Assembly (NCBI GenBank): GCA_964651705.1
Contig: CAZYWZ010000023.1
Coordinates: 4,412 to 68,411, forward strand
DNA: 64,000 bases
Reading direction: 5' to 3'
Source of the DNA: an uncultured Verrucomicrobiales bacterium
GTDB lineage: Bacteria > Verrucomicrobiota > Verrucomicrobiia > JADLBR01
Below are positions 23,680 through 63,980 of this stretch, piece by piece. Under the pieces are notes generated by a model that did no database searches, was not told where the DNA came from, and was given only the letters and a program-made list of their open reading frames with translations. Positions within the stretch are counted from its first letter, which is position 1. Every line of letters starts with the position of its first letter. A program made the position numbers and the translations under genes.

Positions 23680-25200
23680 ATGAAAAACATCCTCACCCTC
23701 TTAGCCTCGTACTGCCTCCTGGCCCCATTCGCCACGGCATCGCCACCCCCGAACATCGTCGTCTTCCTAGTCGACGACATGGGCGTGATGGATACCTCCG
23801 TGCCTTTTCTGACCGGCGCCGACGGCAAGCCGAAACGCTACCCGCTGAATGATCTCTATCGCACGCCGGCCATGGAACGCCTCGCGGGCCGCGGCATCCG
23901 CTTCAACAACTTCTGCGCCATGAGCGTGTGCTCCCCCACGCGCATCTCGATCATGACCGGCCAGAACGCGGCCCGGCACCGCACCACGAATTGGATCAAC
24001 CCCGACAAGGATAACGCCGGCCCCAGCGGACCGCCAGACTGGAACTGGAAGGGCCTCGCGCGCGGCGACGTGACCCTCGCCTCCATGCTCCGCGCCCAGG
24101 GCTTCCGGACGATCCACGTCGGCAAGGGCCACTTCGGCCCGCGCGATGCCGAGGGCGGCGACCCGTCCAACATCGGCTTCGAGGTCAACGTCGGCGGCGC
24201 GTCCATGGGCGCGCCCGGCAGCTATTACGGGAAGGAGAACTTCGGCCACGGCACCAAGCGCGCCCACAACGCCGTCCCCCACCTCGAGAAATACCATGGC
24301 ACCGATATCTTCCTCACCGAGGCGCTCACCATCGAGGCCAAGGCACGCGTCTCGGACGCGGTGCGGGATGGGAAACCCTTCTTCCTGTACATGGCCCACT
24401 ATGCCGTGCACGCGCCGTTCCAGTCCGATCCGCGCTTCGCCGACCATTACATCAACTCCGGCAAACCGAAGGACGCCCAGGCCTTCGCCACACTCATCGA
24501 AGGCATGGACAAGTCGCTGGGCGATCTCCTCGACCACCTCGATTCGCTGGGGATCGCCGAGAATACCCTGGTCCTGTTCCTAGGCGACAACGGCAGCGAC
24601 GCGCCACTGGGCCACCAGCACGAGGTGGCATGCGCCGCACCCCTCCGGGGAAAGAAGGGTGCGCACTACGAGGGTGGCATGCGCGTGCCCTTCATCGCGG
24701 CCTGGGCCAATCCCTCCTCCTCCAACACCAACCAACAGCGCCTGCCAATACCCGCCGCCTCCCTCCAGGGCCAGCAGGCCGCCGTCCAAGACATCTTCCC
24801 GACCATACTCGACCTCCTGGATGTCCCTCCCCCCAAGGGCCACGTGGTCGATGGCTTCAACCTGGCCACCCTGCTCTCCGGAAAGCCCGATCCCAGTCGG
24901 CCCGAGGCATTCCTCATGCACTACCCTCACTCGCCACACCGGAGCGAATACTGGACCAGTCTCCGGGATGGCGCATGGAAAGTCATCTATCACTACTTCC
25001 CCTCCGAGGCCTCCGGCGGCTCCCACTACCAGCTCTATAATATCAAGGACGATCCCTTCGAGCAAAACGACCTCGCCACCTCCCGGCCCGATGAACTCCG
25101 CCGCATGATGAAGAATCTCGCCGCCGAGCTAGAGCGGCACGACGCCGCCTATCCCATCGACAAGGGCGCACAGACCCCGCTGAAACCACGGTTGCCGTAG
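23680..25200 (+). CDS. Sulfatase (Cys-type)
   Basis: Signal peptide MKNILTLLASYCLLAPFATA. NIVVFLVDDMG. Motif MSVCSPTRISIMTG. Confidence 0.88.
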   Translation: MKNILTLLASYCLLAPFATASPPPNIVVFLVDDMGVMDTSVPFLTGADGKPKRYPLNDLYRTPAMERLAGRGIRFNNFCAMSVCSPTRISIMTGQNAARHRTTNWINPDKDNAGPSGPPDWNWKGLARGDVTLASMLRAQGFRTIHVGKGHFGPRDAEGGDPSNIGFEVNVGGASMGAPGSYYGKENFGHGTKRAHNAVPHLEKYHGTDIFLTEALTIEAKARVSDAVRDGKPFFLYMAHYAVHAPFQSDPRFADHYINSGKPKDAQAFATLIEGMDKSLGDLLDHLDSLGIAENTLVLFLGDNGSDAPLGHQHEVACAAPLRGKKGAHYEGGMRVPFIAAWANPSSSNTNQQRLPIPAASLQGQQAAVQDIFPTILDLLDVPPPKGHVVDGFNLATLLSGKPDPSRPEAFLMHYPHSPHRSEYWTSLRDGAWKVIYHYFPSEASGGSHYQLYNIKDDPFEQNDLATSRPDELRRMMKNLAAELERHDAAYPIDKGAQTPLKPRLP

Positions 25201-25215
25201 CGCCCCCGCTCGTAG

Positions 25216-25233
25216 TGCCGCGTTCACGCGGCA
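25216..25233. repeat. 18-bp perfect palindrome TGCCGCGTTCACGCGGCA (copy 1, 16 nt after the sulfatase stop)
   Basis: Arms tgccgcgt / acgcggca are exact reverse complements. An identical 18-mer recurs at 25600-25617. Confidence 0.6.
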
Positions 25234-25349
25234 GCCCGCGCGCCACCGGAGACGCCTGAAGGGCCTGTCGGTCAATTCCAGACCGCGCGGGAGTGCCGTG
25301 AGCCGGTATACCATCGCGACGCCATCGTGTGCTCCGATTCCGTCGGGCG

Positions 25350-25525
25350 GGCCTTTGGACTGCGGTGGCAGAACCCCGAACGGGGTGGCGACACCGCTTT
25401 GGATCCGCGGCCGGATCGCCTCGGGCGATCGGAGCGCGGGCGTCGGACCTGTCGCGCAGGTCCCGGCTCCGCCGGACGAAAAAGCGGCGTCGACGCTTCG
25501 CTTTGCCGCCGCACTCCACACTCGG
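25350..25525 (+). repeat. About 175-nt structured intergenic repeat element, copy 1 (candidate ncRNA or MITE-like element)
   Basis: About 90% identical over the first about 100 nt to 63675-63845. 5-prime arm ttggactgcggtggcag (25355-25371) pairs with 25503-25520 in 13/17 positions (two of the mismatches are wobble-compatible). Internal short hairpin gatcgcc-tcg-ggcgatc. Confidence 0.5.
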
Positions 25526-25599
25526 CCTCCGCTCCATCGTGATCGTCGAATAAATCGACACGCCATGAAGGCGTCACCACGAACCTCCCCCACTCGCTG

Positions 25600-25617
25600 T
25601 GCCGCGTTCACGCGGCA
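25600..25617. repeat. 18-bp perfect palindrome TGCCGCGTTCACGCGGCA (copy 2, upstream of the next sulfatase)
   Basis: Identical to 25216-25233. The two copies bracket the 175-nt repeat element. Confidence 0.6.
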
Positions 25618-25704: not shown

Positions 25705-27231
25705 ATGCGGGCGGGCTCTTCCCTCGGGACCCGCTCCGCCAGACTCCTGCCCCTCCCGTTCCTATTCGCGTTCTCGCTCTCATTCACCGTCGCCGCCGAC
25801 CGGCCCAACATCATCCTCATGATGGGCGACGACCACGGATGGGAGGAGACCGGCTACAACGGCCACCCCCATGTGAGGACGCCCGTGCTCGACGAGATCG
25901 CCGCCACCGGATTCAAATTCAATCACTTCTACGCCGCCCACCCCTCCTGCTCCCCCACCCGCGCCAGCTTTCTCACCGGCCGCCACCCGAATCGCATGGG
26001 CACTTTCGCCCCGGGCTGGTCCTTCCGTCCCGAGGAAATCACGATCGCCCACCTCCTCGCAAGGGCCGGCTACCACTGCGCGCATCTCGGGAAGTGGCAC
26101 GTCGGCGCGGTCAGGAAGGACTCCCCCGTCAATCCCGGCGCCATGGGTTTCCACGAGTGGCTCTCGCACGACAACTTTTTCGAGATGAATCCATCGCTGT
26201 CCCGCGATGGCGCGCCGCCGGAGCCTTTCGAGGGCGAGAGCTCCGACATCCTCGTCGGCGAGGCCATCCGCGTCATCGACCGGGCCCGCGTTGCCGGCAA
26301 GCCCTTCTTCCAGGTGATCTGGTTCGGGTCGCCGCACGAGCCCTACAGCGGCCTGCCCGCTGACCTCGCCCTCTACGACGACCTCCCCGCGAAGTACCCG
26401 AAGCCCGTGAAGCTCACGTCCAACCAGACCGGCGGCCCCGTCACCCGCCCACAGGGCGAGGTCATCCGCGAGCGCTACGCCGAAATCACCGCGATGGACC
26501 GCGCCATCGGCCGCCTCCGCTCGCATCTGGCCAAAGGCGGCCTCCGAGAAAATACGCTCCTGTTCTACTGCGGCGACAACGGCACCTCGCCCGACGCCGC
26601 ACTCGGCTTCCCCCACCGCGGCACCAAGGGTCAGGTCTACGAGGGAGGCACCTTGGTCCCCGGCCTCATCGAATGGCCCGCCCGCATCCCCGGACCCCGA
26701 TCCAGTCCCTTCCGCGCCTCCACCAGCGACCTCCTTCCCACCCTAGCCGCCATCACCGGGACGCCATTGCCCGATCGGCCACTCGACGGCATCGACCTCA
26801 CCGCCGCCCTAGATGGCAAACTCACCACCCGCCCCACCCCACTGCATTTCTGGCAATACCCTAACGGGCGCTTCGCCCGATCAAAAGCCGAACCCTATAT
26901 CGACCCCAGATTGCAGGAGGGCACCACCCCGCTCGTCAAACTCTCGGGAGGGAAAGCGACGCGCGATTTCCTCAACTATCGGCAGCCCGCGCCCACCGAT
27001 GCCGATTACCTCGGCCCGCGCTCGATCATCGAGGGCCGCTTCAAGCTCGTCATACATGAGCGGAAGAACGCCGCACCCGCGCGCGAGCTCTTCGACCTCG
27101 ACGCCGACCCCGGCGAAAATCACGACCTCGCCACAAGCCAACCCGCACTCGCCGAAGATATGCAAACCCGCCTCCGCGCCTGGCAGGATGGCGTCCTGCG
27201 CAGCCTCACCGGCGCGGACTACCCGAAATGA
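25705..27231 (+). CDS. Sulfatase (Cys-type)
   Basis: Signal peptide MRAGSSLGTRSARLLPLPFLFAFSLSFTVAA. NIILMMGDDHG. Motif HPSCSPTRASFLTG. The track ORF begins at 25636 (TTG); the Met at 25705 gives a canonical signal peptide. Confidence 0.85.
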   Translation: MRAGSSLGTRSARLLPLPFLFAFSLSFTVAADRPNIILMMGDDHGWEETGYNGHPHVRTPVLDEIAATGFKFNHFYAAHPSCSPTRASFLTGRHPNRMGTFAPGWSFRPEEITIAHLLARAGYHCAHLGKWHVGAVRKDSPVNPGAMGFHEWLSHDNFFEMNPSLSRDGAPPEPFEGESSDILVGEAIRVIDRARVAGKPFFQVIWFGSPHEPYSGLPADLALYDDLPAKYPKPVKLTSNQTGGPVTRPQGEVIRERYAEITAMDRAIGRLRSHLAKGGLRENTLLFYCGDNGTSPDAALGFPHRGTKGQVYEGGTLVPGLIEWPARIPGPRSSPFRASTSDLLPTLAAITGTPLPDRPLDGIDLTAALDGKLTTRPTPLHFWQYPNGRFARSKAEPYIDPRLQEGTTPLVKLSGGKATRDFLNYRQPAPTDADYLGPRSIIEGRFKLVIHERKNAAPARELFDLDADPGENHDLATSQPALAEDMQTRLRAWQDGVLRSLTGADYPK

Positions 27232-44143: not shown

Positions 44144-46867
44144 CTACTTGAGCCGCCGCTTCCGGAGAATCGCACCGACGCCCAGCAGCAGCCATGCCCA
44201 TGCCGCCGGCTCGGGCACCGGGATGAGCCAGCCACCGCCGGCCAAGGCGTGGATCTCGTCGTTCAACTCGGGGTTGAGCGAAGGGGCGTAGTAGATGTTG
44301 AATGCCGAGGTGACCTGTTGTGTGTCGGCATTGAACCGGAGCACGTAGAGCGCCGTGCCATCATTGCCAGTATTGCCGTCTTCGATCGTCACGGTGCCGC
44401 CTGGCGCGATCTCCAGTTCCCCGATCGCAAAGTTGTTGCTGTAGCCGCTCCAGTCGAGGCCGAGATCGGCGCCTGCAAATTCGAAAGTGTGGCTGCCGAT
44501 CCCGAAACCGAGCGCCGAGCCCGCGAGGTCGAACGTGAACGCGTTGGTGCTGGCGTTGAGCAAATTGCCCTGGATGACGAATTCATCGCCGGGCCCGCCG
44601 TTCAGCGCGCCGCTCGCGCCAACCTGGAGGGTGGTGAAGAAGTTGGTGCCCGAGTCGCTGATGTATTTGCCATTGTTCACGAAGACATCCAGGAACGTGA
44701 TCTGGCCACCGGTGTTCTTGAAGACCCCGCCGAGTTCGTTGGTCACGACGCTGGCGACGCTTCCCACGTCCCCGGCCGCGTCGAGTTGCGCCCCCGGCCG
44801 CACCAGCACGACGCCGCCGGTGCCCGTGACCGCCCCGCCCTCCAACCGCATGACGCCGTTGGACGCCGACAACACGCCGTAGTTGGCGATAGCGGCGGAA
44901 ACCGTCCCCCAACCGCTGACGGTGGCGTTGGTGTTGATGACCAGGCCGTCGCTGAAGCCGTGGGCTCCGCCGAGAAGGTTCATCGTGGCTCCCTGTGCAC
45001 CATCGCCGATGGTGAAGGCGAAGGTATTGGCGAGGGCGCTGCCACGGGCGCTCAACGTGCCGGCGTTGAAACTCATCTGCCCGCCAGCGTTGGTCAAGAT
45101 GAGTTGATCGGTCGCAACGCTGCCGCCGTTGAGGCTCAGCAAGCCGTGGCGCACTTCCAGCGAGCCGCTGCCGGCCGGCCCAACTGCTTGCAGATTGCCG
45201 CCGATGACGGCCACCAAGCTGCCCGTGGCCGCGGAAACCCTTCCGACCACAACGCCCGAGGCAACAACGGAGCCGCCGTCAGCGATACTCAATTGGTTGT
45301 CCGGACCCTCATGACCCACATAGAGGTTGTTGCGGTTAGTCCAGAGCGAATCGGCGCCGATGACAAGCACCGCGTTGCTCCTCGCCAGGCCGCCATAGCC
45401 CACGAACCCGTTGTCATCCGCCACGGCGCCGCCGTTGCTGATGATCAACCCGTTGCACGAACCTTGATTGCCCACCCGTAACCATGAGCCGTTATCCCAG
45501 AGCGAATCGGCGCCGGTGACAAGCACCACGTTGTTGCTCGCGTAATGTGTGTCGCCCAGGTAGCAACCGTTGTTCGCCACCGTGCCGCCGCCGCTGATGG
45601 TCAGCCGGTTGCCCGAACCGTAGTCGCCCACGCTTAGATACGACCTGTTGGTCCAGAGCGAATTGGCGCCGGTCACCATCACCACGTTGTTGCTCGCGCT
45701 CTTCTCATCGCCCACACAGCCGTAAGAGTCCGCCACCGTGCCGCCGTCGCTGATCGTCAACCGGTTGCCCGACCCGTAGTCGCCCACGGTTAAAGAGGTG
45801 TTGGTCCAGAGCGAGCCGGCGCCGGTGACCAGCACCGCGTTGTCGCTCGCGTTGCTGCCGCAGCCCACATAGCCGTTCTCGCTCTTCACCATGCCGCCGT
45901 TGGTGATGGTCAATCGATTGCCCGAACCGAAGCAGCCCACATGGAGGTCATTGCGGTTGGTCCAGAGCGAGCTGGCGCCGGTGACCAGTACCGCGTTGTT
46001 GCTGGCGCGGCTGTCTTGTCCTACATAGGCGTTCCCGCTGGCCACCGTGGCGCCGTCGCTGATGGTCAGCCGGTTGCACGACCCCGAATCGCCTACGCTA
46101 AGGTTGGTCCGGTTGTTCCAGAGCGAATCGGCGCCGGTGACAAGCACCGCGTTGCTGCTCGCCAGGCCGCCATAGCCCACGAACCCGCTGTCATTTGCCA
46201 CGGCGCCGCCGTTGCTGATGGTCAACCGGTTGCACGAACCCTGATTGCCCACCCGCAACCATGAGCCGTTATGCCAGAGCGAATCGGCGCCGGCGACCAG
46301 CACCACGTTGTTGCTCGCGTAATGTGTGTCGCCCAGGTAGCAGCCGTTGTTCACCACCGTGCCGCCGTCGCTGATGGTCAACCGGTTGTCCGAACCGTAG
46401 TCGCCCACGCTTAAATAGAACCTGTTGGTCCAGAGCGAATTGGCGCCGCTGACCAGCACCACGTTGTTGCTCGCGCTCTTCCCGTCGCCCACACCGCCGT
46501 AAGAGTCCGCCACCGTGCCGCCGTCGCTGATGGTCAGGCCGTTGAAGGAGCCTGAATTGCCAATGGTCAGATCGTTGCTGTTGTTCCAGATAGACCCACT
46601 GCCTGTGATCAAGGCGGAATTGTGGTCGGCGCCGGCGAGATCGCCCACAATGCCCGCTGTCGAATTCAGGTCGGCGTTGTTTGTGACGATCAGGGCATTC
46701 AGCGGTCCATTGCTGCCGACCAGGTACGTTCCGGCATAGTTGACGGAAATGCCGTTGATGACGTTCGTTTGGCGGGTCTCGGCGCTGGCCGGGCCGCAAA
46801 ATACAACCCCCAAGCAGGCCCATGTCGCGGCAACCCTCCACAGTCGAATCCTTGGAAGTCGCCTCAT
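44144..46867 (-). CDS. PEP-CTERM-anchored surface protein built of about 45-aa autotransporter-associated beta-strand-like repeats
   Basis: Signal peptide MRRLPRIRLWRVAATWACLGVVFCGPASA. At least 10 repeats of the form SLWTNR..L.VGD.GS.NRLTISDGGTVA. C-terminus LIPVPEPAAWAWLLLGVGAILRKRRLK (VPEP + TM + basic = PEP-CTERM exosortase sorting signal). Confidence 0.75.
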   Translation of the reverse strand: MRRLPRIRLWRVAATWACLGVVFCGPASAETRQTNVINGISVNYAGTYLVGSNGPLNALIVTNNADLNSTAGIVGDLAGADHNSALITGSGSIWNNSNDLTIGNSGSFNGLTISDGGTVADSYGGVGDGKSASNNVVLVSGANSLWTNRFYLSVGDYGSDNRLTISDGGTVVNNGCYLGDTHYASNNVVLVAGADSLWHNGSWLRVGNQGSCNRLTISNGGAVANDSGFVGYGGLASSNAVLVTGADSLWNNRTNLSVGDSGSCNRLTISDGATVASGNAYVGQDSRASNNAVLVTGASSLWTNRNDLHVGCFGSGNRLTITNGGMVKSENGYVGCGSNASDNAVLVTGAGSLWTNTSLTVGDYGSGNRLTISDGGTVADSYGCVGDEKSASNNVVMVTGANSLWTNRSYLSVGDYGSGNRLTISGGGTVANNGCYLGDTHYASNNVVLVTGADSLWDNGSWLRVGNQGSCNGLIISNGGAVADDNGFVGYGGLARSNAVLVIGADSLWTNRNNLYVGHEGPDNQLSIADGGSVVASGVVVGRVSAATGSLVAVIGGNLQAVGPAGSGSLEVRHGLLSLNGGSVATDQLILTNAGGQMSFNAGTLSARGSALANTFAFTIGDGAQGATMNLLGGAHGFSDGLVINTNATVSGWGTVSAAIANYGVLSASNGVMRLEGGAVTGTGGVVLVRPGAQLDAAGDVGSVASVVTNELGGVFKNTGGQITFLDVFVNNGKYISDSGTNFFTTLQVGASGALNGGPGDEFVIQGNLLNASTNAFTFDLAGSALGFGIGSHTFEFAGADLGLDWSGYSNNFAIGELEIAPGGTVTIEDGNTGNDGTALYVLRFNADTQQVTSAFNIYYAPSLNPELNDEIHALAGGGWLIPVPEPAAWAWLLLGVGAILRKRRLK

Positions 46868-54496: not shown

Positions 54497-57400
54497 TCAA
54501 TGCCTCAACAAAAATTCCGGGTTGTTGACCAGCGCCCAGGCGAGGTCGATCCAGACATCATTCCCTTTCGCCGCGCCGGTCTTGGCGTGCTCTTCTGCCG
54601 CCCGCACGTCGGCCTCCGTCGGGAACCGCGAGAGGATGGCGAGATAGAGCCTCTCGGCAATCTCCTCCGGTTTGCCGCCCGCGGAGATCAGCGCCGCGAG
54701 TTTCGGGCCTCCCTGAAGCTTCTGCTGGATGGTGGCCGAATTCAGCATATGCAGCCACTGCGGCGAGGCGAGTTCGCTCACGCGCTCGCTCTCCATCCCC
54801 GTGGCGCGCGTGGAGCGCCCGAACAGCGTCAGGAACGAACTCGTGACGCTGCCGTCGGCCAGGGCCACCGCGGGCATGTCCTCCGGAATATACGTGAACG
54901 GCTCCGGGACGGCGCTGGTGTACAGGTCAGATGTGCCGGTGATCTCGTTCAGGGCATCGATGAGCACCTCGGCCTCGACCCGGCGCAGGCGGTAGTTCGC
55001 AAAGGCCGCCACCGCCTCCGTACCCTTGGTCCTCGGCATCGAAGAGAACTGGTATGCCGTCGAGGTGAAAATCAGGCGCTTCAGGTGCCTCAGGTCGTAG
55101 CCGCTCGAGACCAACTCTTTCTCCAGATAGGCCAGAAGCTCGGGGATGGCGGGCGGGTTGTCCTCCCGGATGTCATCGGGCTCATGGATGATGCCGCGAC
55201 CCATGGCCCAGGCCCAGGTCCGATTGGCGATCGCCTTCGCGAACCACGGGTTCTCGGCGCGTATGAGCCAATCCGCGAACACCTCGCGCGGGTCGCGGTC
55301 TGGTGGGATGGTCGTCTTGGCGCCATCCGGAAACGTCGCCGCGAGCGGGGCGTTCTCGCTGAGCGGCTGCGCCAGCGCCTGGGGGATCTTGTTGGCGACG
55401 CTCACCGCCTTGGCGACGGCATCGACGCCCGGGGCGATGCTGCCAGGCACCGCGGTCGATTTCAGCGGGTCCCAGAACACGATCTCCTCCTTCCACTCGC
55501 TGGTGGGCTTGTAGCCGACCTGCGAGAAGAAGGCCGCCATGGAGGCCCGACGCTCATCGGGCCAGGACAGGACCCGCGTCCCCATCAGCGCCAATCCCAC
55601 CGACGCGGCAATTCCCTCCGGGCTCCTGTCTTGGATCGCCCTGTAGAAGTTGACCGGCCCGACGCGGAAATTGCTGCCGCTGGAGGTGAGCAGTTCCCGG
55701 ACGAACTTGTCGTACCGCGCGTTCTTGGCGATGGCCTCCCAGACCCAGCGATAATAGGCCTGCGCCGCGTTGGGCCAGAGTTTCACGGGAAACTCGGCCT
55801 TGATCCGCAAGATATCGCTCCATTTCATCGCCCAGTAGTCGACGTGCGCGGTCTGGCCGAGCAGCCGGTCGATCAGGGCGACGCGCTTGTTCTTGTCCGC
55901 GTCGCGGATGAACGCCTTCGCCTCATCCGCCGCCGGCAACTTGCCCGTCAGGTCCAGATAGGCGCGGCGGATGAATGCCGCATCGGTGCAGAGCGCCGGC
56001 TCGATGCCCGATGCCTTCAGCTTCGCGAAGATGATCTCGTCGATGCGGTTTCCCGGCTTCGGCGGATCGGGGCCCTCGAGGAGACCCGCGACGCGACCCT
56101 CGGCGATCAGCCGGTACAGCGCGGCCTTGGTCTCCTGGACCCTGGCGCGCTTTTCGTCGGAAACGTCCTGGGCGGCCAGATACGCCGCGCGCGTTCTCTC
56201 CGCCTCCGCCTTAAGCGGAGCGGCGGCGGCCTCCGCTTCCCCCGCCGCCTTCTCGTCCGCCACGTGGGTCTCCTTGGCCGACGCGACCCGCTTCCTGATG
56301 TTCGCGAGCGTCTCGTCCGTAGATACCTTCCGCTTCTCGGCACGGTCCAGCGCCTGCGCCGCGTTGTTGGCTTGAATCGTCGCCTGCTCCAGGGCCTTCT
56401 GTTTCGGGTCGAGCGCCGCCTTCGCCTCGTTGGCCGCCTTGCGCTTGGCGGCCGCTTCGGCCGTGGCCTGCTGGCTCGCCGCATCGAGTTGCAGGAGTTC
56501 CTTGGCCACCGCCCGGGCGCCCTCGTTCGCGGCGGCGCAGGCGGCGACCTGCTTCTTGGCGTTCGCCAACGCGTCGTCGGCCGCCTTCTTCTGCGCATCC
56601 GCACCCGTCACGACTCCCGCGGCCGCCGCGACCTGTTTCTGCGCCTCCTGCTGTTTCTGCTGGGCCTGGGAAAGCGCCGCCTTGGCCCCATCGGCCACCT
56701 TGCGTTTGGCGGCGGCATCGTCGGCGGCCTGCTTTTTCTCCGCGTCTGACTTGGCGGCATCCGCCGCGACCTGTTTGGCCGTGGCATCTGCCGCCGCCGC
56801 CGCCTGTTCGGCCCCTTGAGCGGCTGCGGTCGCGGCACCCACCTGCTGGCTCGCGGCCGCCAGCGCCTCGTCGGCCTTCTTCTTTCCCGCCTGTGCCTCG
56901 GCCAACTTCTGCCCGGCGGCCGCGACCTGTGCCCCGGCCCCCTGCTCTCCCTGCTGCGCCTTGGCCAGCGCGGCCGCGGCATCCGCCGCCGCCTTGCGCT
57001 TGGCCGCGGCCTGGTCTGCCACCTGCCGCTTCTCCGCGGCCAGTCTCTCAGCGGCTTGGGCGGCCTGCTCCGCGGCCTCGGCGGCTGCCGCTGTGGCACC
57101 GGCCTGCTTCTTTACGCTGGCCATGGCGGAATCGAGCAACTTCTTCCGCGAGGCCGGACCCGCAAATTTCTCCGCGGCGGCGGCGGCCAATTTCTGCGGT
57201 TCCTGCACCGCGGCCTGGGCCTGCGCCAGGGCCAACTTGGCCGCAGCGGCCGCCTTGCGCTTGGCCTCGGCATCGGCCCCCGCCTGCCGCACTTGCTCCT
57301 CGGAGCGAGCGGCACGCTCGGCCATCACCTTGGCCCTGGACTCGGCCGCCTGGGCCGCCTGCTCGGCCAACTGTTGCGCGCCGATGGCCGCCGCCAACTG

Positions 57401-59491
57401 TTTCTTCGCGTTGGCCGAGGCCTCGTCGGCCGCCTTCTTCTGGGCCTGGGCGTCGGTCAGGGTCTTCGCCGTGACGTTGGCGTGGCCCTGCGCTTGCTGC
57501 TCGCCCTGCTGGGCGTGGGCCAGCGCCGCCTTTGCCTCGTCGGCGACTTTCCGTTTGGCCGCCGCATCCGTCGCCGCCTCCTGTTTCTGGGGATCCGTTC
57601 TCCCGAAAAGGGCGGCGATGCCACGCCCCTTGCCCTCGGCCGCCTGCGCCTCCTTCTCGGCGGCATCGGCGGCGCCCGTGGCTGCGGCCAGCTGGTTCTT
57701 TGCGCTGGCCAGGGCTTCATCCGCCGCCTTCTTCTCGGCCTGGGCCGAGCCCAACTTCGTGGCCGCCGCATCCGCCGTCGCCTGCGCCCCTTGTTGTTTC
57801 TGCTGGGCCTGCGCCAGCGCGGCACCGGCATCATTGGCCACCTTGCGCTTCGCCGCCGCCTCCCGCACGGACTGGGCCAACTCCGCGGCCGATATCACCT
57901 TTGCGTTGGCCGCCGCCGCCTGGGCCACTTGCTCGGCCGCCTGATAGGCGGCCTGCGCCTCTTGCGGCTTCTGCGGCGCCTGCGCCAGCGCCGCCTTCGC
58001 ATCGTCCGCCGCCTTCCTCTTGGCCGCCGCATCCGCCGCGGCCTGCTTCATCTGCTCCTCGGTCCTCCCCGCGCGCTCGACCATCGCCTTTGCCGACGCC
58101 TCCGCCGCCTGCGCCTCCTGCTCCGCGCCCCCCTGAGTGCCCGCCGCCGCCGCCGCCAGATTCTTCGCATTGGCCAGGGCCTCGTCGGCCGCCTTCTTTT
58201 CGGCTTCCGCCCCCGCCCCCTTCTTGGCGGCCGCCTCGGCCGCCGCCTGCGCCCCCTGCTGTTTCTGCTGCGCCTGCGCCAGCGCCGCCTTCGCATCGTC
58301 TGCCGCCTTGCGCTTCGCCGCCGCCTCGCCAGCGACCTGGGCCAGTTCGGCGACCGGCACGACCCGCGCATTCGCCGCAGCCGCCTGCGCCGCCTGCTCG
58401 GCAACCTGATAGGCCGCCGTGGCCGCGGCGAGCTGTTTCTTGGCGTTGGCCAAGGCCTCATCCGCCGCCTTCTTCTGCCCTTCCGCCGCCACCAACTTCT
58501 GCGCGGCATCGGTGGCCTGCGCCTGCGCCCGCTGGTCGGCCTGCTGTGCCTGGGTCAAGGCGGCCTTGGCCTCTTCCGCCGCCTTGCGCTTCGTCGCCGC
58601 TTCCCCCGCCGCCTGCTGCTTCTCGGCCTCCGACACCGGCTTCGCATTCTCCGCTGCCGCCCCCGCGGCCTGCTCGGCTGCCTGATGCGCGGCCGCGGCC
58701 GCGGCCAGCTGCTTGTTGGCGTTCGCCAGCACTTCGTCGGCCGCCTTTTTCTCCTTCTCTACAACGGCAAGCTCTTGCCCCGCCTCGTTGACCTGCGCCT
58801 GTAACTTCTCCTCCCCCTGCCGCGCCCGCGCCAGCGCGACTTTCGCCCCATCCGCCGCCCGGCGCTTCACCGCCGCTTCCGCCGCCGCGCGCTTGGCTTC
58901 CTCCTCGGGCCGATTCGCCGCGTCGGATGCCGCCTTCGCCGCCGCCTCGGCTTCCTTCGCCGCCTTCTCCGCCGCATCATAGGCCTGCTGCAGCGGGAGC
59001 GCCACCGCCTTGGCATCGGCCAACGCCTTGTCCAGCGGCGGCTTCGCGCTCGTCGCGTCGGCCAAACCCTTCACGGCCACGGCCACATTGTCCTCCGCTT
59101 CCTTGATGGCCTTGACGCCCCCTTCCCCGGCCAGTTCCTTCGCCTCCGTCGCCTGCTGCCGCTTCGTGTCGGCGCCCTTCCTAGCCTCGGCGTACGCCCC
59201 GTCGGCCTTCTGCATCGCCGCCCTCAGCGGACCCACCGCCGCATCCGCCTCCCCAGACGCCTTCGCCGCTCCCTCGTATGCCGCCCTCGCCTCCGCCTCC
59301 GTCACCGCCGCCTTCGCCGCATCCGCCCCCACAGCCACCCCACAATGGAAATTCCCCGACGCGACCGCCAAGGCCACAACAAGGACTACCCAGCCCCCCT
59401 TGCCCCGGGGGAACAACACCTCGCCATCAACGCCGCAATTCATGGATCGATCCCTCGAAGGCTCTCGGCCCAATCCGGCCGACAAAATCAA
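54497..59491 (-). CDS. DUF1549/DUF1553 (PSD1-type) protein with an N-terminal membrane anchor and an about 1000-aa Ala/Lys/Glu/Gln-rich coiled-coil repeat array
   Basis: C-terminal third has DUF1549 (IDEIIFAKLKASGIEPALCTDAAFIRRAYLDLTGKLPAADEAKAFIRD...KRVALIDRLL) then DUF1553 (ENPWFAKAIANRTWAWAMGRGIIHEPDDIRED). The N-terminal 60-1000 aa consist of about 12 repeats of about 57-100 aa anchored on AAKRK[AV]A[DN][DE]AKAAL[AS]QAQQ. The periodicity also shows up as about 280-nt-spaced look-alike antisense ORFs. Confidence 0.8.
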   Translation of the reverse strand: MILSAGLGREPSRDRSMNCGVDGEVLFPRGKGGWVVLVVALAVASGNFHCGVAVGADAAKAAVTEAEARAAYEGAAKASGEADAAVGPLRAAMQKADGAYAEARKGADTKRQQATEAKELAGEGGVKAIKEAEDNVAVAVKGLADATSAKPPLDKALADAKAVALPLQQAYDAAEKAAKEAEAAAKAASDAANRPEEEAKRAAAEAAVKRRAADGAKVALARARQGEEKLQAQVNEAGQELAVVEKEKKAADEVLANANKQLAAAAAAHQAAEQAAGAAAENAKPVSEAEKQQAAGEAATKRKAAEEAKAALTQAQQADQRAQAQATDAAQKLVAAEGQKKAADEALANAKKQLAAATAAYQVAEQAAQAAAANARVVPVAELAQVAGEAAAKRKAADDAKAALAQAQQKQQGAQAAAEAAAKKGAGAEAEKKAADEALANAKNLAAAAAGTQGGAEQEAQAAEASAKAMVERAGRTEEQMKQAAADAAAKRKAADDAKAALAQAPQKPQEAQAAYQAAEQVAQAAAANAKVISAAELAQSVREAAAKRKVANDAGAALAQAQQKQQGAQATADAAATKLGSAQAEKKAADEALASAKNQLAAATGAADAAEKEAQAAEGKGRGIAALFGRTDPQKQEAATDAAAKRKVADEAKAALAHAQQGEQQAQGHANVTAKTLTDAQAQKKAADEASANAKKQLAAAIGAQQLAEQAAQAAESRAKVMAERAARSEEQVRQAGADAEAKRKAAAAAKLALAQAQAAVQEPQKLAAAAAEKFAGPASRKKLLDSAMASVKKQAGATAAAAEAAEQAAQAAERLAAEKRQVADQAAAKRKAAADAAAALAKAQQGEQGAGAQVAAAGQKLAEAQAGKKKADEALAAASQQVGAATAAAQGAEQAAAAADATAKQVAADAAKSDAEKKQAADDAAAKRKVADGAKAALSQAQQKQQEAQKQVAAAAGVVTGADAQKKAADDALANAKKQVAACAAANEGARAVAKELLQLDAASQQATAEAAAKRKAANEAKAALDPKQKALEQATIQANNAAQALDRAEKRKVSTDETLANIRKRVASAKETHVADEKAAGEAEAAAAPLKAEAERTRAAYLAAQDVSDEKRARVQETKAALYRLIAEGRVAGLLEGPDPPKPGNRIDEIIFAKLKASGIEPALCTDAAFIRRAYLDLTGKLPAADEAKAFIRDADKNKRVALIDRLLGQTAHVDYWAMKWSDILRIKAEFPVKLWPNAAQAYYRWVWEAIAKNARYDKFVRELLTSSGSNFRVGPVNFYRAIQDRSPEGIAASVGLALMGTRVLSWPDERRASMAAFFSQVGYKPTSEWKEEIVFWDPLKSTAVPGSIAPGVDAVAKAVSVANKIPQALAQPLSENAPLAATFPDGAKTTIPPDRDPREVFADWLIRAENPWFAKAIANRTWAWAMGRGIIHEPDDIREDNPPAIPELLAYLEKELVSSGYDLRHLKRLIFTSTAYQFSSMPRTKGTEAVAAFANYRLRRVEAEVLIDALNEITGTSDLYTSAVPEPFTYIPEDMPAVALADGSVTSSFLTLFGRSTRATGMESERVSELASPQWLHMLNSATIQQKLQGGPKLAALISAGGKPEEIAERLYLAILSRFPTEADVRAAEEHAKTGAAKGNDVWIDLAWALVNNPEFLLRH

Positions 59492-63291: not shown

Positions 63292-63515
63292 CGTTCCACG
63301 CGGGGCTCTCGCGCCACCGGCGTGGCGCGCGCCCCGACAAGGCGATAGGTCCAAAACTGCAGCGTCGACCACGCCTGCACCAATATCGGAACCGGCAACA
63401 GAAGTCGAGGTCGCGCCGACCCGATCCGCAGGCACTGTCTCAAATCGGGCCAGCCCCACCCCCGCCGCGCGGACGCGCCGCATCGTTCATGTGGAAACTC
63501 CATTCCCGCTGCCGC

Positions 63516-63613
63516 CTGGCACAGGCGGCCTACAAAAAATTGTAGGGCGTCTGTGCCAGACGCCACCGGGGGGAAGTTTCAGGTCAGCCCCGCCCCCGGC
63601 GCGCGGGGGCGGG
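63516..63613. promoter_or_regulatory. Cluster of hairpins upstream of the GH85-like gene: nested imperfect hairpin 63516-63559 and GC-rich perfect hairpin 63589-63613
   Basis: ctggcacag...cctacaa-aaaa-ttgtagg...ctgtgccag (63516-63559). cccgcccccg-gcgcg-cgggggcggg (63589-63613). Candidate terminators or protein-binding sites; no T-tract follows either hairpin. Confidence 0.4.
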
Positions 63614-63674
63614 TCCAGCCAGAGTCCACCACGCGCCGGATGATTCAGGGGGAAACTTCGGATGCGCCCGAGGG

Positions 63675-63845
63675 GCCGTTTGGACTGCGGTGGCAGAACC
63701 CCGCCAGGGGTGGCGGCACCGCTTTGGATCCGCAGTCCGATCGCCGCGGGTGATCGGAGTGCGGGCGTTGGCCCCGGATCCCGGCTCCGCCGGGAGCCAA
63801 AGCGGTGTCGCCGCTGCGCTCTGCCACCGCAGTCCAAAATCGGGC
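63675..63845 (+). repeat. About 175-nt structured intergenic repeat element, copy 2
   Basis: Aligns to 25350-25525. 5-prime arm ttggactgcggtggcag (63680-63696) is the exact reverse complement of ctgccaccgcagtccaa (63821-63837): a 17-bp perfect long-range stem enclosing 124 nt. Internal hairpin ccgatcgcc-gcg-ggtgatcgg has one G.U wobble. Confidence 0.55.
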
Positions 63846-63939
63846 CGCCTCCTGACCCCGGCGCACCACCGGATTCACAACGAACGAGAATACAATGAAT
63901 TATCTCCGTCGTCCCCATGATCCGCGGTTTGAAGTTTCT

Positions 63940-63980
63940 GGCTAGGAATCTGTCGGACAAAGTCCGACAGATTCCTAGCC
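63940..63980. repeat. 41-bp perfect palindrome / hairpin (19-bp stem, 3-nt loop)
   Basis: ggctaggaatctgtcggac-aaa-gtccgacagattcctagcc. The 5-prime arm is the exact reverse complement of the 3-prime arm. AT-richer than its surroundings. Located at the window edge. Confidence 0.7.

Follow-up and report, generated by a model that had tools for sequence, protein, structure and literature searches.

Two copies of an uncatalogued dispersed palindromic repeat of Verrucomicrobiota in a 64-kb metagenomic sequence

The stretch of DNA analysed here, hereafter the window, comprises 64,000 nucleotides (nt) of contig CAZYWZ010000023.1 (positions 4,412 to 68,411, forward strand) from the assembly of an uncultured Verrucomicrobiales bacterium (GCA_964651705.1), and it contains two copies of a structured repeat element. 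Copy 1 lies inside a 504-nt spacer that separates two co-directional sulfatase genes, 154 nt past the stop at 25200 and 184 nt ahead of the likely ATG at 25705. A preliminary description of the window had put this copy in the 5' region of a sulfatase gene, a position that has to be corrected to the intergenic spacer. Copy 2 precedes a GH85 gene on the minus strand, at a distance of 388 nt from its likely start (63291), and the conserved unit around this copy is larger than was noted, extending over about 63615-63945. The cores of the two copies and the helices predicted for them are as follows:

25354..25521, plus strand: core of copy 1, from alignment and fold, 170 bits against the covariance model
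25356-25372/25502-25518, plus strand: helix P1 of copy 1, from the fold
25373-25386, plus strand: branch hairpin P2 of copy 1, from the fold
25389-25400/25481-25492, plus strand: helix P3 of copy 1, from the fold
25404-25440 and 25441-25478, plus strand: inner hairpins of copy 1, from the fold
63679..63840, plus strand: core of copy 2, from alignment and fold, 180 bits against the covariance model
63679-63697/63820-63838, plus strand: helix P1 of copy 2, 19 bp, perfect
63698-63711, plus strand: branch hairpin P2 of copy 2, from the fold
63712-63725/63799-63812, plus strand: helix P3 of copy 2, from the fold
63732-63762, 63763-63774 and 63783-63798, plus strand: inner hairpins of copy 2, from the fold

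The two copies are collinear and 79.9% identical over 168 and 162 aligned nt, with an identity of 87.5% in the first 96 nt, 69.9% in the remainder and only about 50% in the 60-nt flanks. Copy 2 is the sole BLASTN match of copy 1 within the window (E=8e-44), and the window holds only two copies. The 17-mer TTGGACTGCGGTGGCAG occurs at 25355 and 63680 and, reverse-complemented, at 63821, where chance would lead one to expect about 0.3 matches. The same branched hairpin is predicted for both copies, with a folding energy of -96.6 kcal/mol (z=-4.4) for copy 1 and -123.7 kcal/mol (z=-9.95) for copy 2. The 3' arm of copy 2 exactly complements the canonical left (L) arm, an arrangement that we call type A, while that of copy 1 is of a diverged type that we call R; within the 17-nt arm of copy 1 we counted 13 Watson-Crick pairs, two G.U pairs and two mismatches. 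Both copies contain the inner hairpin gatcgcc/ggcgatc, which carries a G.U pair in copy 2 (alignment columns 65/73). The preliminary description had reported two similar structured segments at these places, a perfect outer stem in copy 2 against 13 of 17 pairs with two G.U-compatible differences in copy 1, and the inner hairpin with its G.U change, and the alignment and fold reproduce each of these observations, with the cores now refined.

Further copies were gathered by matches to an 18-mer or 19-mer of the arm, and the retrieved loci are designated by L-numbers (e.g. L099). The 19-mer of the 5' arm matched 14 GTDB contigs, 12 of which belong to metagenome-assembled genomes (MAGs) of Verrucomicrobiota assigned to Akkermansiaceae, Limisphaerales, Verrucomicrobiales or Verrucomicrobiia; six of these 12 contigs come from a single MAG. 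In the other two contigs (Methanosarcinaceae, Streptomyces) the match is limited to the 19-mer itself. The 18-mer arm sequence was found at at least 120 metagenome loci, and about 108 distinct elements were extracted, all of which follow one plan. The search for additional copies that had been proposed earlier has thus yielded more than 100 in other organisms. No element was matched in the viral contigs and plasmids searched. The arm sequences do not occur in the literature, where keyword searches gave only general work on repetitive extragenic palindromes (REPs) and on REPINs, the hairpins formed by REP doublets. From these observations, we conclude that the two window segments belong to a large family of short, non-coding, dispersed palindromic repeats of Verrucomicrobiota that had not been catalogued before.

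The members of the family behave as repeats in assemblies. Eleven contigs end inside the element, and the short-read contigs that carry the window genes end at about 25230, 25281, 25535 and 63515, all of them repeat borders. Different contigs of one sample carry full-length copies that are nearly identical, also in their centre and in about 130 nt of flanking sequence. We also observed solo L arms, a deletion derivative joined at a CACCGC microhomology (L002), tandem copies (L007, L106) and one copy in which the arm bearing the branch hairpin P2 is inverted relative to the centre (L129). At several loci (L044, over 3.9 kb; L021; L106/L127; L131) two or three elements lie within a few kilobases, some of them in tandem, with a conserved linker containing TACAAT between units.

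Each element consists of two inverted arms of about 40 nt, which form helices P1 and P3, around a centre of about 20-190 nt. The L arm reads TTTGGACTGCGGTGGCAG, a junction J and GGCGACACCGCTTT; on the 3' side, it is paired either with its exact complement, as seen in copy 2 (type A), or with an R arm that is diverged but fixed, AAAGCGGCGTGGCGCTTCGCTTCCCGCCGCAGTCCAAA (type B). Type B with a length of 97 nt is the commonest form. Each arm is itself palindromic around its junction, with GCGGTG...CACCGC in L and GCGGCG...CGCCGC in R. In a set of 41 distinct 97-nt copies, conservation per position reaches 90-100% in the arms, against 30-55% in the loop, and two constant wobble pairs are retained together with fixed mismatches. 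The basic junction J is A-GCG-N-AGC, in which N is C in 48 copies, A in eight, T in eight and G in three; each of the other positions shows at most four variants. Judged from the sequences, this variation is the pattern of a putative mini-hairpin of two base pairs with a G-N-A triloop. In other subfamilies, whose stems differ, J is replaced by the 5-7-bp hairpin P2, with the stem ACCCC/GGGGT in the window copies and GCCCT/AGGGC, AGCCT/AGGCT or GTCCGGC/GCCGGAC elsewhere, and larger inserts occur too. Some copies have similar small hairpins inserted at the mirror site in the R arm. Because the hairpins at J and at its mirror site vary in this way, the element can be described as a three- or four-way junction with a branch of varying length.

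Beyond the arms, subfamily-specific flanks often pair again, forming a helix P0. In a 142-nt class, conservation between loci also covers some 72 nt of sequence before the element and some 60 nt after it; the unit ends sharply (CTAGCCAGA...TCTGGCTAG) and contains two boxes that pair with each other, A (GAAACTTC) and A' (GAAGTTTC). Flanks are shorter in the 97-nt class, where pairing is between CTGCAAC and GTTGCGG; relative to this class, the outer helix of L046 (CCGCAG/CTGCGG) shows a compensatory difference. An analysis of k-mer enrichment in the flanks gave subfamily-specific signals only. The 5' flank is purine-rich and resembles RARRAT, and arrays of the CATCCGTG type flank many 97-nt elements, for example L105 and L024.

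The genes that flank the elements are unrelated housekeeping genes and include those for response regulators, ABC transporters, ribosome recycling factor, menaquinone synthesis, sulfatases and type II secretion. Among the asymmetric type B copies with confidently identified flanking genes, seven are in sense and eight in antisense orientation between co-directional genes, three lie between convergent genes and none between divergent genes. The type II secretion operon of L099 contains two elements, at 162-260 and 1329-1427, each as a 99-nt in-frame insert of 33 codons in the leader-peptide coding part of a gspH or gspJ homologue, so that the leaders read MNARVEK[FGLRWQ...PAALQ]NRAFTL in GspH and MKTKRTNQDK[FGLRWQ...PAALQ]SAFTL in GspJ. 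Prepilin peptidase would presumably remove the insertion from both proteins. The 33 residues (FGLRWQSEAATPLF...KRRGASLPAALQ) are conserved in several clusters of orthologues (P0121-P0135, P0241-P0244), and orthologues at 75-94% identity have either these residues or short canonical leaders. The gspH site is filled in L099, empty with aligning flanks in L148 and occupied by another repeat in L149; likewise, the gspJ site is filled in L099, empty with aligning flanks in L151 and occupied by another repeat in L150. On one contig of 303 kb only gspJ is filled (P0244), gspH being empty (P0195), which indicates that the two insertions are independent. At the pseudopilin-leader sites we also noted heptad arrays, (CGCGTCA)n in L149:1500-1575 and (GATTGCC)3 ... 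(AATCGTC)4 in inverted orientation in L150:1350-1505; these and the similar CATCCGTG arrays may be a second repeat family or arrays of binding sites. For the window copies, no empty sites came to light when the proteins of the flanking sulfatase and GH85 genes were looked up by exact sequence; contigs with these genes, or with relatives at 97% and 80% identity, stop at the repeats or lose synteny.

In-frame read-through of the element is seen in the L099 lineage only, and there only in leader-peptide regions. We rejected a protein-coding repeat, given that the lengths (95-99 nt and up) are not consistently multiples of three, that loop lengths vary and that the arms are conserved at all positions. 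The earlier impression that the element is not under selection as a peptide agrees with this, as a coding signal was looked for and not found.

Since the element is multi-copy, lies next to unrelated genes in both orientations and is present or absent at orthologous sites, we regard it as inserted DNA and not as part of the regulation of one gene. We therefore hypothesize that it is a non-autonomous inserted repeat, forming a new family of nested palindromes akin to REPINs, to miniature inverted-repeat transposable elements (MITEs) and to Rickettsia palindromic elements (RPEs), and we consider this explanation probable. The hairpin-forming, MITE-like mobile element proposed in the preliminary description survives in this general form, on the strength of the copy number and of the presence and absence at orthologous sites, but without the target-site duplication for which a check at the copy borders had been suggested. 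Its copying would take place in trans, through an enzyme whose gene lies elsewhere. This enzyme would most likely recognise a folded single strand, as a REP-associated tyrosine transposase (RAYT) or another HUH/Y1 transposase does with REPINs; the lack of a detected target-site duplication, the palindromic nature of each arm and the junction with its predicted G-N-A mini-hairpin point in this direction. Where an element is co-transcribed, it would form an RNA duplex of 35-40 bp, possibly affecting mRNA processing.

Several observations weigh against an inserted repeat of this kind. No target-site duplication was found at the filled and empty junctions of gspH and gspJ, nor any locus-specific direct repeat in about 55 pairs of flanks, and the empty gspH site shows no clean excision footprint. 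The arm consensus lacks the GTAG/CGTC tag of REPs. Pfam scans of 151 flanking open reading frames (ORFs; 142 + 9) revealed no transposase or RAYT, and a tblastn search of 858 kb with two IS200-family TnpA (Y1) queries, which is a weak test, gave none. Furthermore, the arms are nearly unchanged across MAGs of at least two different orders. Between the orthologous elements L029 and L043, arm identity is 97% (38/40 in L, 38/38 in R), compared with 88.6% for the adjacent coding sequence (387 nt) and 73% for the loop. As far as sequences can tell, such conservation looks like selection or homogenisation and not like the decay of selfish DNA; to arise, it requires gene conversion, selection acting on the sequence of the arms, or replacement by a master copy time and again. 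Concerning the missing enzyme, clustering 392 flanking ORFs all against all also yielded no transposase; the families that recurred consisted of sulfatases, sensor kinases, ABC ATPases and artefactual ORFs running through the repeat. No insertion sequence with the same ends was seen among the retrieved loci.

Because the arms are common to at least two orders and, in one pair, exceed the conservation of coding sequence while the centre drifts freely, we also considered that the near-invariant arms might be the recognition site of a dedicated partner kept vertically across Verrucomicrobiota, perhaps within a new replicator/host pair resembling REPIN and RAYT whose substrate is a branched hairpin with a GCG-N-AGC mini-hairpin, or that the elements might represent structured RNAs of a new and abundant class that have a role in the cell. 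We regard this idea as speculative and somewhat unlikely.

A family of structured non-coding RNAs, acting as multi-copy small RNAs or in cis as leaders or processing elements, with the branched hairpin as the functional RNA and the conserved arms as a platform for binding protein or RNA, would account for the very stable fold (z=-9.95 in copy 2), for a junction hairpin of varying length at a fixed site and for the conservation of the arms in situ above that of neighbouring coding DNA. In one subfamily, moreover, a TACAAT box is conserved 33 nt upstream, and a small hairpin on the downstream side has GNRA-type loops. Covariance model R1 matched both strands of nearly every element, and alignment A4 was left unused for counting pairs. 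Among the four closest relatives (the window type), one of 60 pairs is compensatory and the deviations comprise five G.U against two A.C; on the L-to-R strand of the 97-nt class, 18 deviations are wobble pairs and eight are A.C. Compensatory differences otherwise occur solely between subfamilies, in the branch hairpin P2 and the flanking helix P0, and they are not specific to RNA because the inverted repeats of a mobile element would show them too. The arms, being invariant, show no covariation, and the previous argument that pairing is kept while the sequence diverges is accordingly weak, as the arms are conserved as sequence. The hints of a structure on one strand are few, are partly inherited by descent and are equally compatible with a single-stranded DNA intermediate.

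Against an RNA family we found no Rfam match at gathering thresholds in the whole window, and scans by E-value, run on the region of copy 2 and on eight related loci, returned nothing beyond generic hits to miRNA-precursor hairpins far below threshold, so that the match to a known RNA or riboswitch family sought earlier was not obtained. Promoter and terminator scans gave nothing next to either window copy. There is no fixed gene association, the orientations relative to flanking genes are even (sense 7 versus antisense 8), and the two strands of type B copies fold nearly equally, the top strand being better in 38 of 64 copies by a mean of 1.6 kcal/mol. The element is missing at orthologous sites of close relatives, lies in frame inside coding sequence in L099, and in L129 has its P2-bearing arm flipped with respect to the centre. 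We conclude that a structured RNA or riboswitch, the other possibility raised in the preliminary description, is unlikely. Among specific classes of folded nucleic acid, we rejected integron attC sites, retron msr/msd, bridge and omega RNAs, 6S and Y RNAs and terminators on their anatomy, as the element lacks R/L boxes, is multi-copy, has no T-run after the stem and has neither a reverse transcriptase nor a recombinase or TnpB nearby.

The conserved flanks bring up a MITE derived from a DDE transposon, which would have its true ends in the outer inverted repeats CTAGCCAGAAACTTC, insert at CTAG-like targets and carry the central hairpin as internal cargo. In the 142-nt class and in copy 2, conservation does reach past the hairpin, by about 60-105 nt to either side, their ends CTAGCCAGA...TCTGGCTAG are sharp, and the outermost tetranucleotide (CTAG, CTGA, CTGG, CCAG) varies more than the rest. 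These outer ends are specific to subfamilies, however, and the flanks of the 97-nt class are different and shorter. It is the inner arms, not the outer ends, that are conserved in all subfamilies, which is the opposite of what is expected of terminal repeats bound by a transposase; CTAG, being palindromic and nearly constant, is indistinguishable from an extension of the inverted repeat, and no transposase gene with such ends was seen among the retrieved loci. We consider such an origin improbable.

We find it quite unlikely, too, that the element is a hairpin domesticated by the host in the manner of bacterial interspersed mosaic elements (BIMEs) or enterobacterial repetitive intergenic consensus (ERIC) sequences, serving in protection of mRNA 3' ends, in RNase III processing between cistrons or in binding of a nucleoid or topology protein, and spread by recombination instead of active transposition. 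Its absence between divergent genes (0/18, where the rough expectation is one quarter), its presence inside operons such as that for type II secretion in L099, the in situ arm conservation above coding DNA and its mosaic association with other small repeat modules speak for such a function, but the element is dispensable at the orthologous gspH and gspJ sites. This explanation is, moreover, partly compatible with, and not exclusive of, an inserted repeat. Chance resemblance or a local segmental duplication confined to this genome, which the presence of just two copies in the window might suggest, is refuted by the match between the copies (E=8e-44) and by the more than 100 related copies in other organisms.

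Returning to the non-autonomous inserted repeat, we compared it with known systems. Like REP dimers, REPINs and BIMEs (Bertels & Rainey 2011; Di Nocera et al. 2013, PMC3733652), the element has two inverted imperfect-palindrome units (here GCGGTG...CACCGC) with a variable spacer that form one long hairpin; like REPs and REPINs, it exists in many extragenic copies, as singlets and clusters with occasional insertion into an ORF, forms mosaics with other small repeats, keeps its consensus over long periods and shows no target-site duplication. Besides the missing tag, it differs in that its units are of about 40 nt with a fixed branch hairpin instead of a simple stem-loop of 20-35 nt, that no RAYT was found (in the 151 flanking ORFs and, in a weak test, in the 858 kb) and that at least two orders have its arms in common, while a REP sequence is usually confined to one species or genus. 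With the Correia elements of Neisseria, the ERIC sequences or intergenic repeat units (IRUs) of enterobacteria and the repeat units of pneumococcus (RUPs) it shares the size range of 100-330 nt, terminal or nested inverted repeats, an intergenic location that is often within operons, occurrence in both orientations, presence/absence polymorphism and a predicted long RNA duplex. Unlike these, it is most conserved internally and not terminally; it has no sequence similarity to them and no known cognate insertion sequence, and Correia elements duplicate TA, while no target-site duplication was found here.

RPEs and the intragenic REPs of Opitutus terrae (PMC3733652) likewise place a palindromic repeat in frame within protein genes, but their sequences are unrelated, and the present copies are mostly intergenic, with in-frame cases in leader-peptide regions only. 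The ends of IS200/IS605 elements and the palindrome-associated transposable elements (PATEs) resemble the element in being hairpin-based, in the lack of a detected target-site duplication and possibly in a short preferred flank; the IS200/IS605 ends, however, are two different subterminal hairpins and not one nested palindrome, and neither TnpA nor TnpB was found near the present element. Because the assignment to REPs or REPINs fails on the GTAG/CGTC tag and that to MITEs on target-site duplication, we file the element outside the named families, as a new family of the 'dispersed palindromic intergenic repeat' kind. The family is uncatalogued, phylum-wide and unusually conserved, yet elements of its kind are well known.

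The repeat accounts for the assembly breaks that recur in MAGs of Verrucomicrobiota, for spurious or N-terminally extended ORF calls and for the odd 33-residue insertions in pseudopilin leaders. It provides a presence/absence marker for comparing strains and species in an environmentally important and mostly uncultured phylum. Its arms are apparently more constrained than neighbouring genes, and no known enzyme or function explains this; a partner, once found, would either carry the REPIN/RAYT paradigm outside Proteobacteria or establish another paradigm.

Both window copies are surrounded by other small repeats:

25212..25233, plus strand: GTAG-tagged 18-nt palindrome GTAG-TGCCGCGTTCACGCGGCA, upstream of copy 1, a separate classical REP-like repeat
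25322..25329 and 25534-25541, plus strand: 8-nt direct repeat CCATCGTG, 25 nt upstream and 13 nt downstream of copy 1
25600..25617, plus strand: second copy of the 18-nt palindrome TGCCGCGTTCACGCGGCA, downstream of copy 1, preceded by GCTG and not GTAG
63483..63587, plus strand: neighbouring unit with a box-A-like GGAAACTCC, another long hairpin (63499-63574) and a box A' with end motif GAAGTTTCAGGTCAG (63573-63587)
63588-63616: G+C-rich hairpin CCCCGCCCCC-GGCGCGC-GGGGGCGGG, after the neighbouring unit
63615..63945, plus strand: extended copy-2 unit, whose flanks and end motifs are common to the 142-nt class, L124 and L076
63615-63624: end of the copy-2 unit, CCAGCCAGAG
63931-63945, minus strand: other end of the copy-2 unit, CTAGCCAGAAACTTC
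63633-63639/63858-63864, 63645-63652/63848-63855 and 63618-63624/63936-63942: pairings of the copy-2 flanks, from the fold
63652-63659: box A of copy 2, GAAACTTC
63931-63938: box A' of copy 2, GAAGTTTC

The two identical 18-nt palindromes that had been reported to bracket copy 1 are present, at 25216 and 25600, and TGCCGCGTTCACGCGGCA has no further occurrence in the window. They do look like classical REPs, one of them being GTAG-tagged; according to Di Nocera et al. (2013, PMC3733652), the verrucomicrobium Opitutus terrae has abundant GTAG-tagged REPs, some of which are intragenic. Five short-read contigs stop at about 25230, at the first palindrome. The palindrome core GCGTTCACGC also matches the DNA encoding the prepilin motif RAFTL, beside the insertion of the main element in L099. 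Short-read contigs of the window organism restart at 25535, at the second CCATCGTG, and this pair of direct repeats around copy 1 could mark a larger repeat unit or a polymorphism between filled and empty sites in the population.

Since a second unit of similar design and a G+C-rich hairpin adjoin the copy-2 unit, we view its surroundings as a mosaic of small repeat modules. The G+C-rich hairpin recurs beside the 142-nt-class elements L058, L059 and L118, and a short-read contig breaks at about 63515, within the neighbouring unit. A perfect 17-bp hairpin, CTAGGAATCTGTCGGAC-AAA-GTCCGACAGATTCCTAG (63942-63980), abuts the end of the copy-2 unit, and in L072 the same end motif is likewise adjoined by a related hairpin.

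The wider window holds further repeats. Between about 5300 and 43500 lies a dense array of paralogous sulfatase genes, with at least ten copies that have conserved blocks in common and a Pfam Sulfatase match on every neighbour examined; dense sulfatase arrays are typical of polysaccharide-degrading Verrucomicrobia. Long internal tandem repeats occupy 45267-46655 and 56223-59286, with periods of 156 nt and about 261-294 nt, the second set lying within a 4992-nt minus-strand ORF (54497-59491), and these are probably repeated protein domains.

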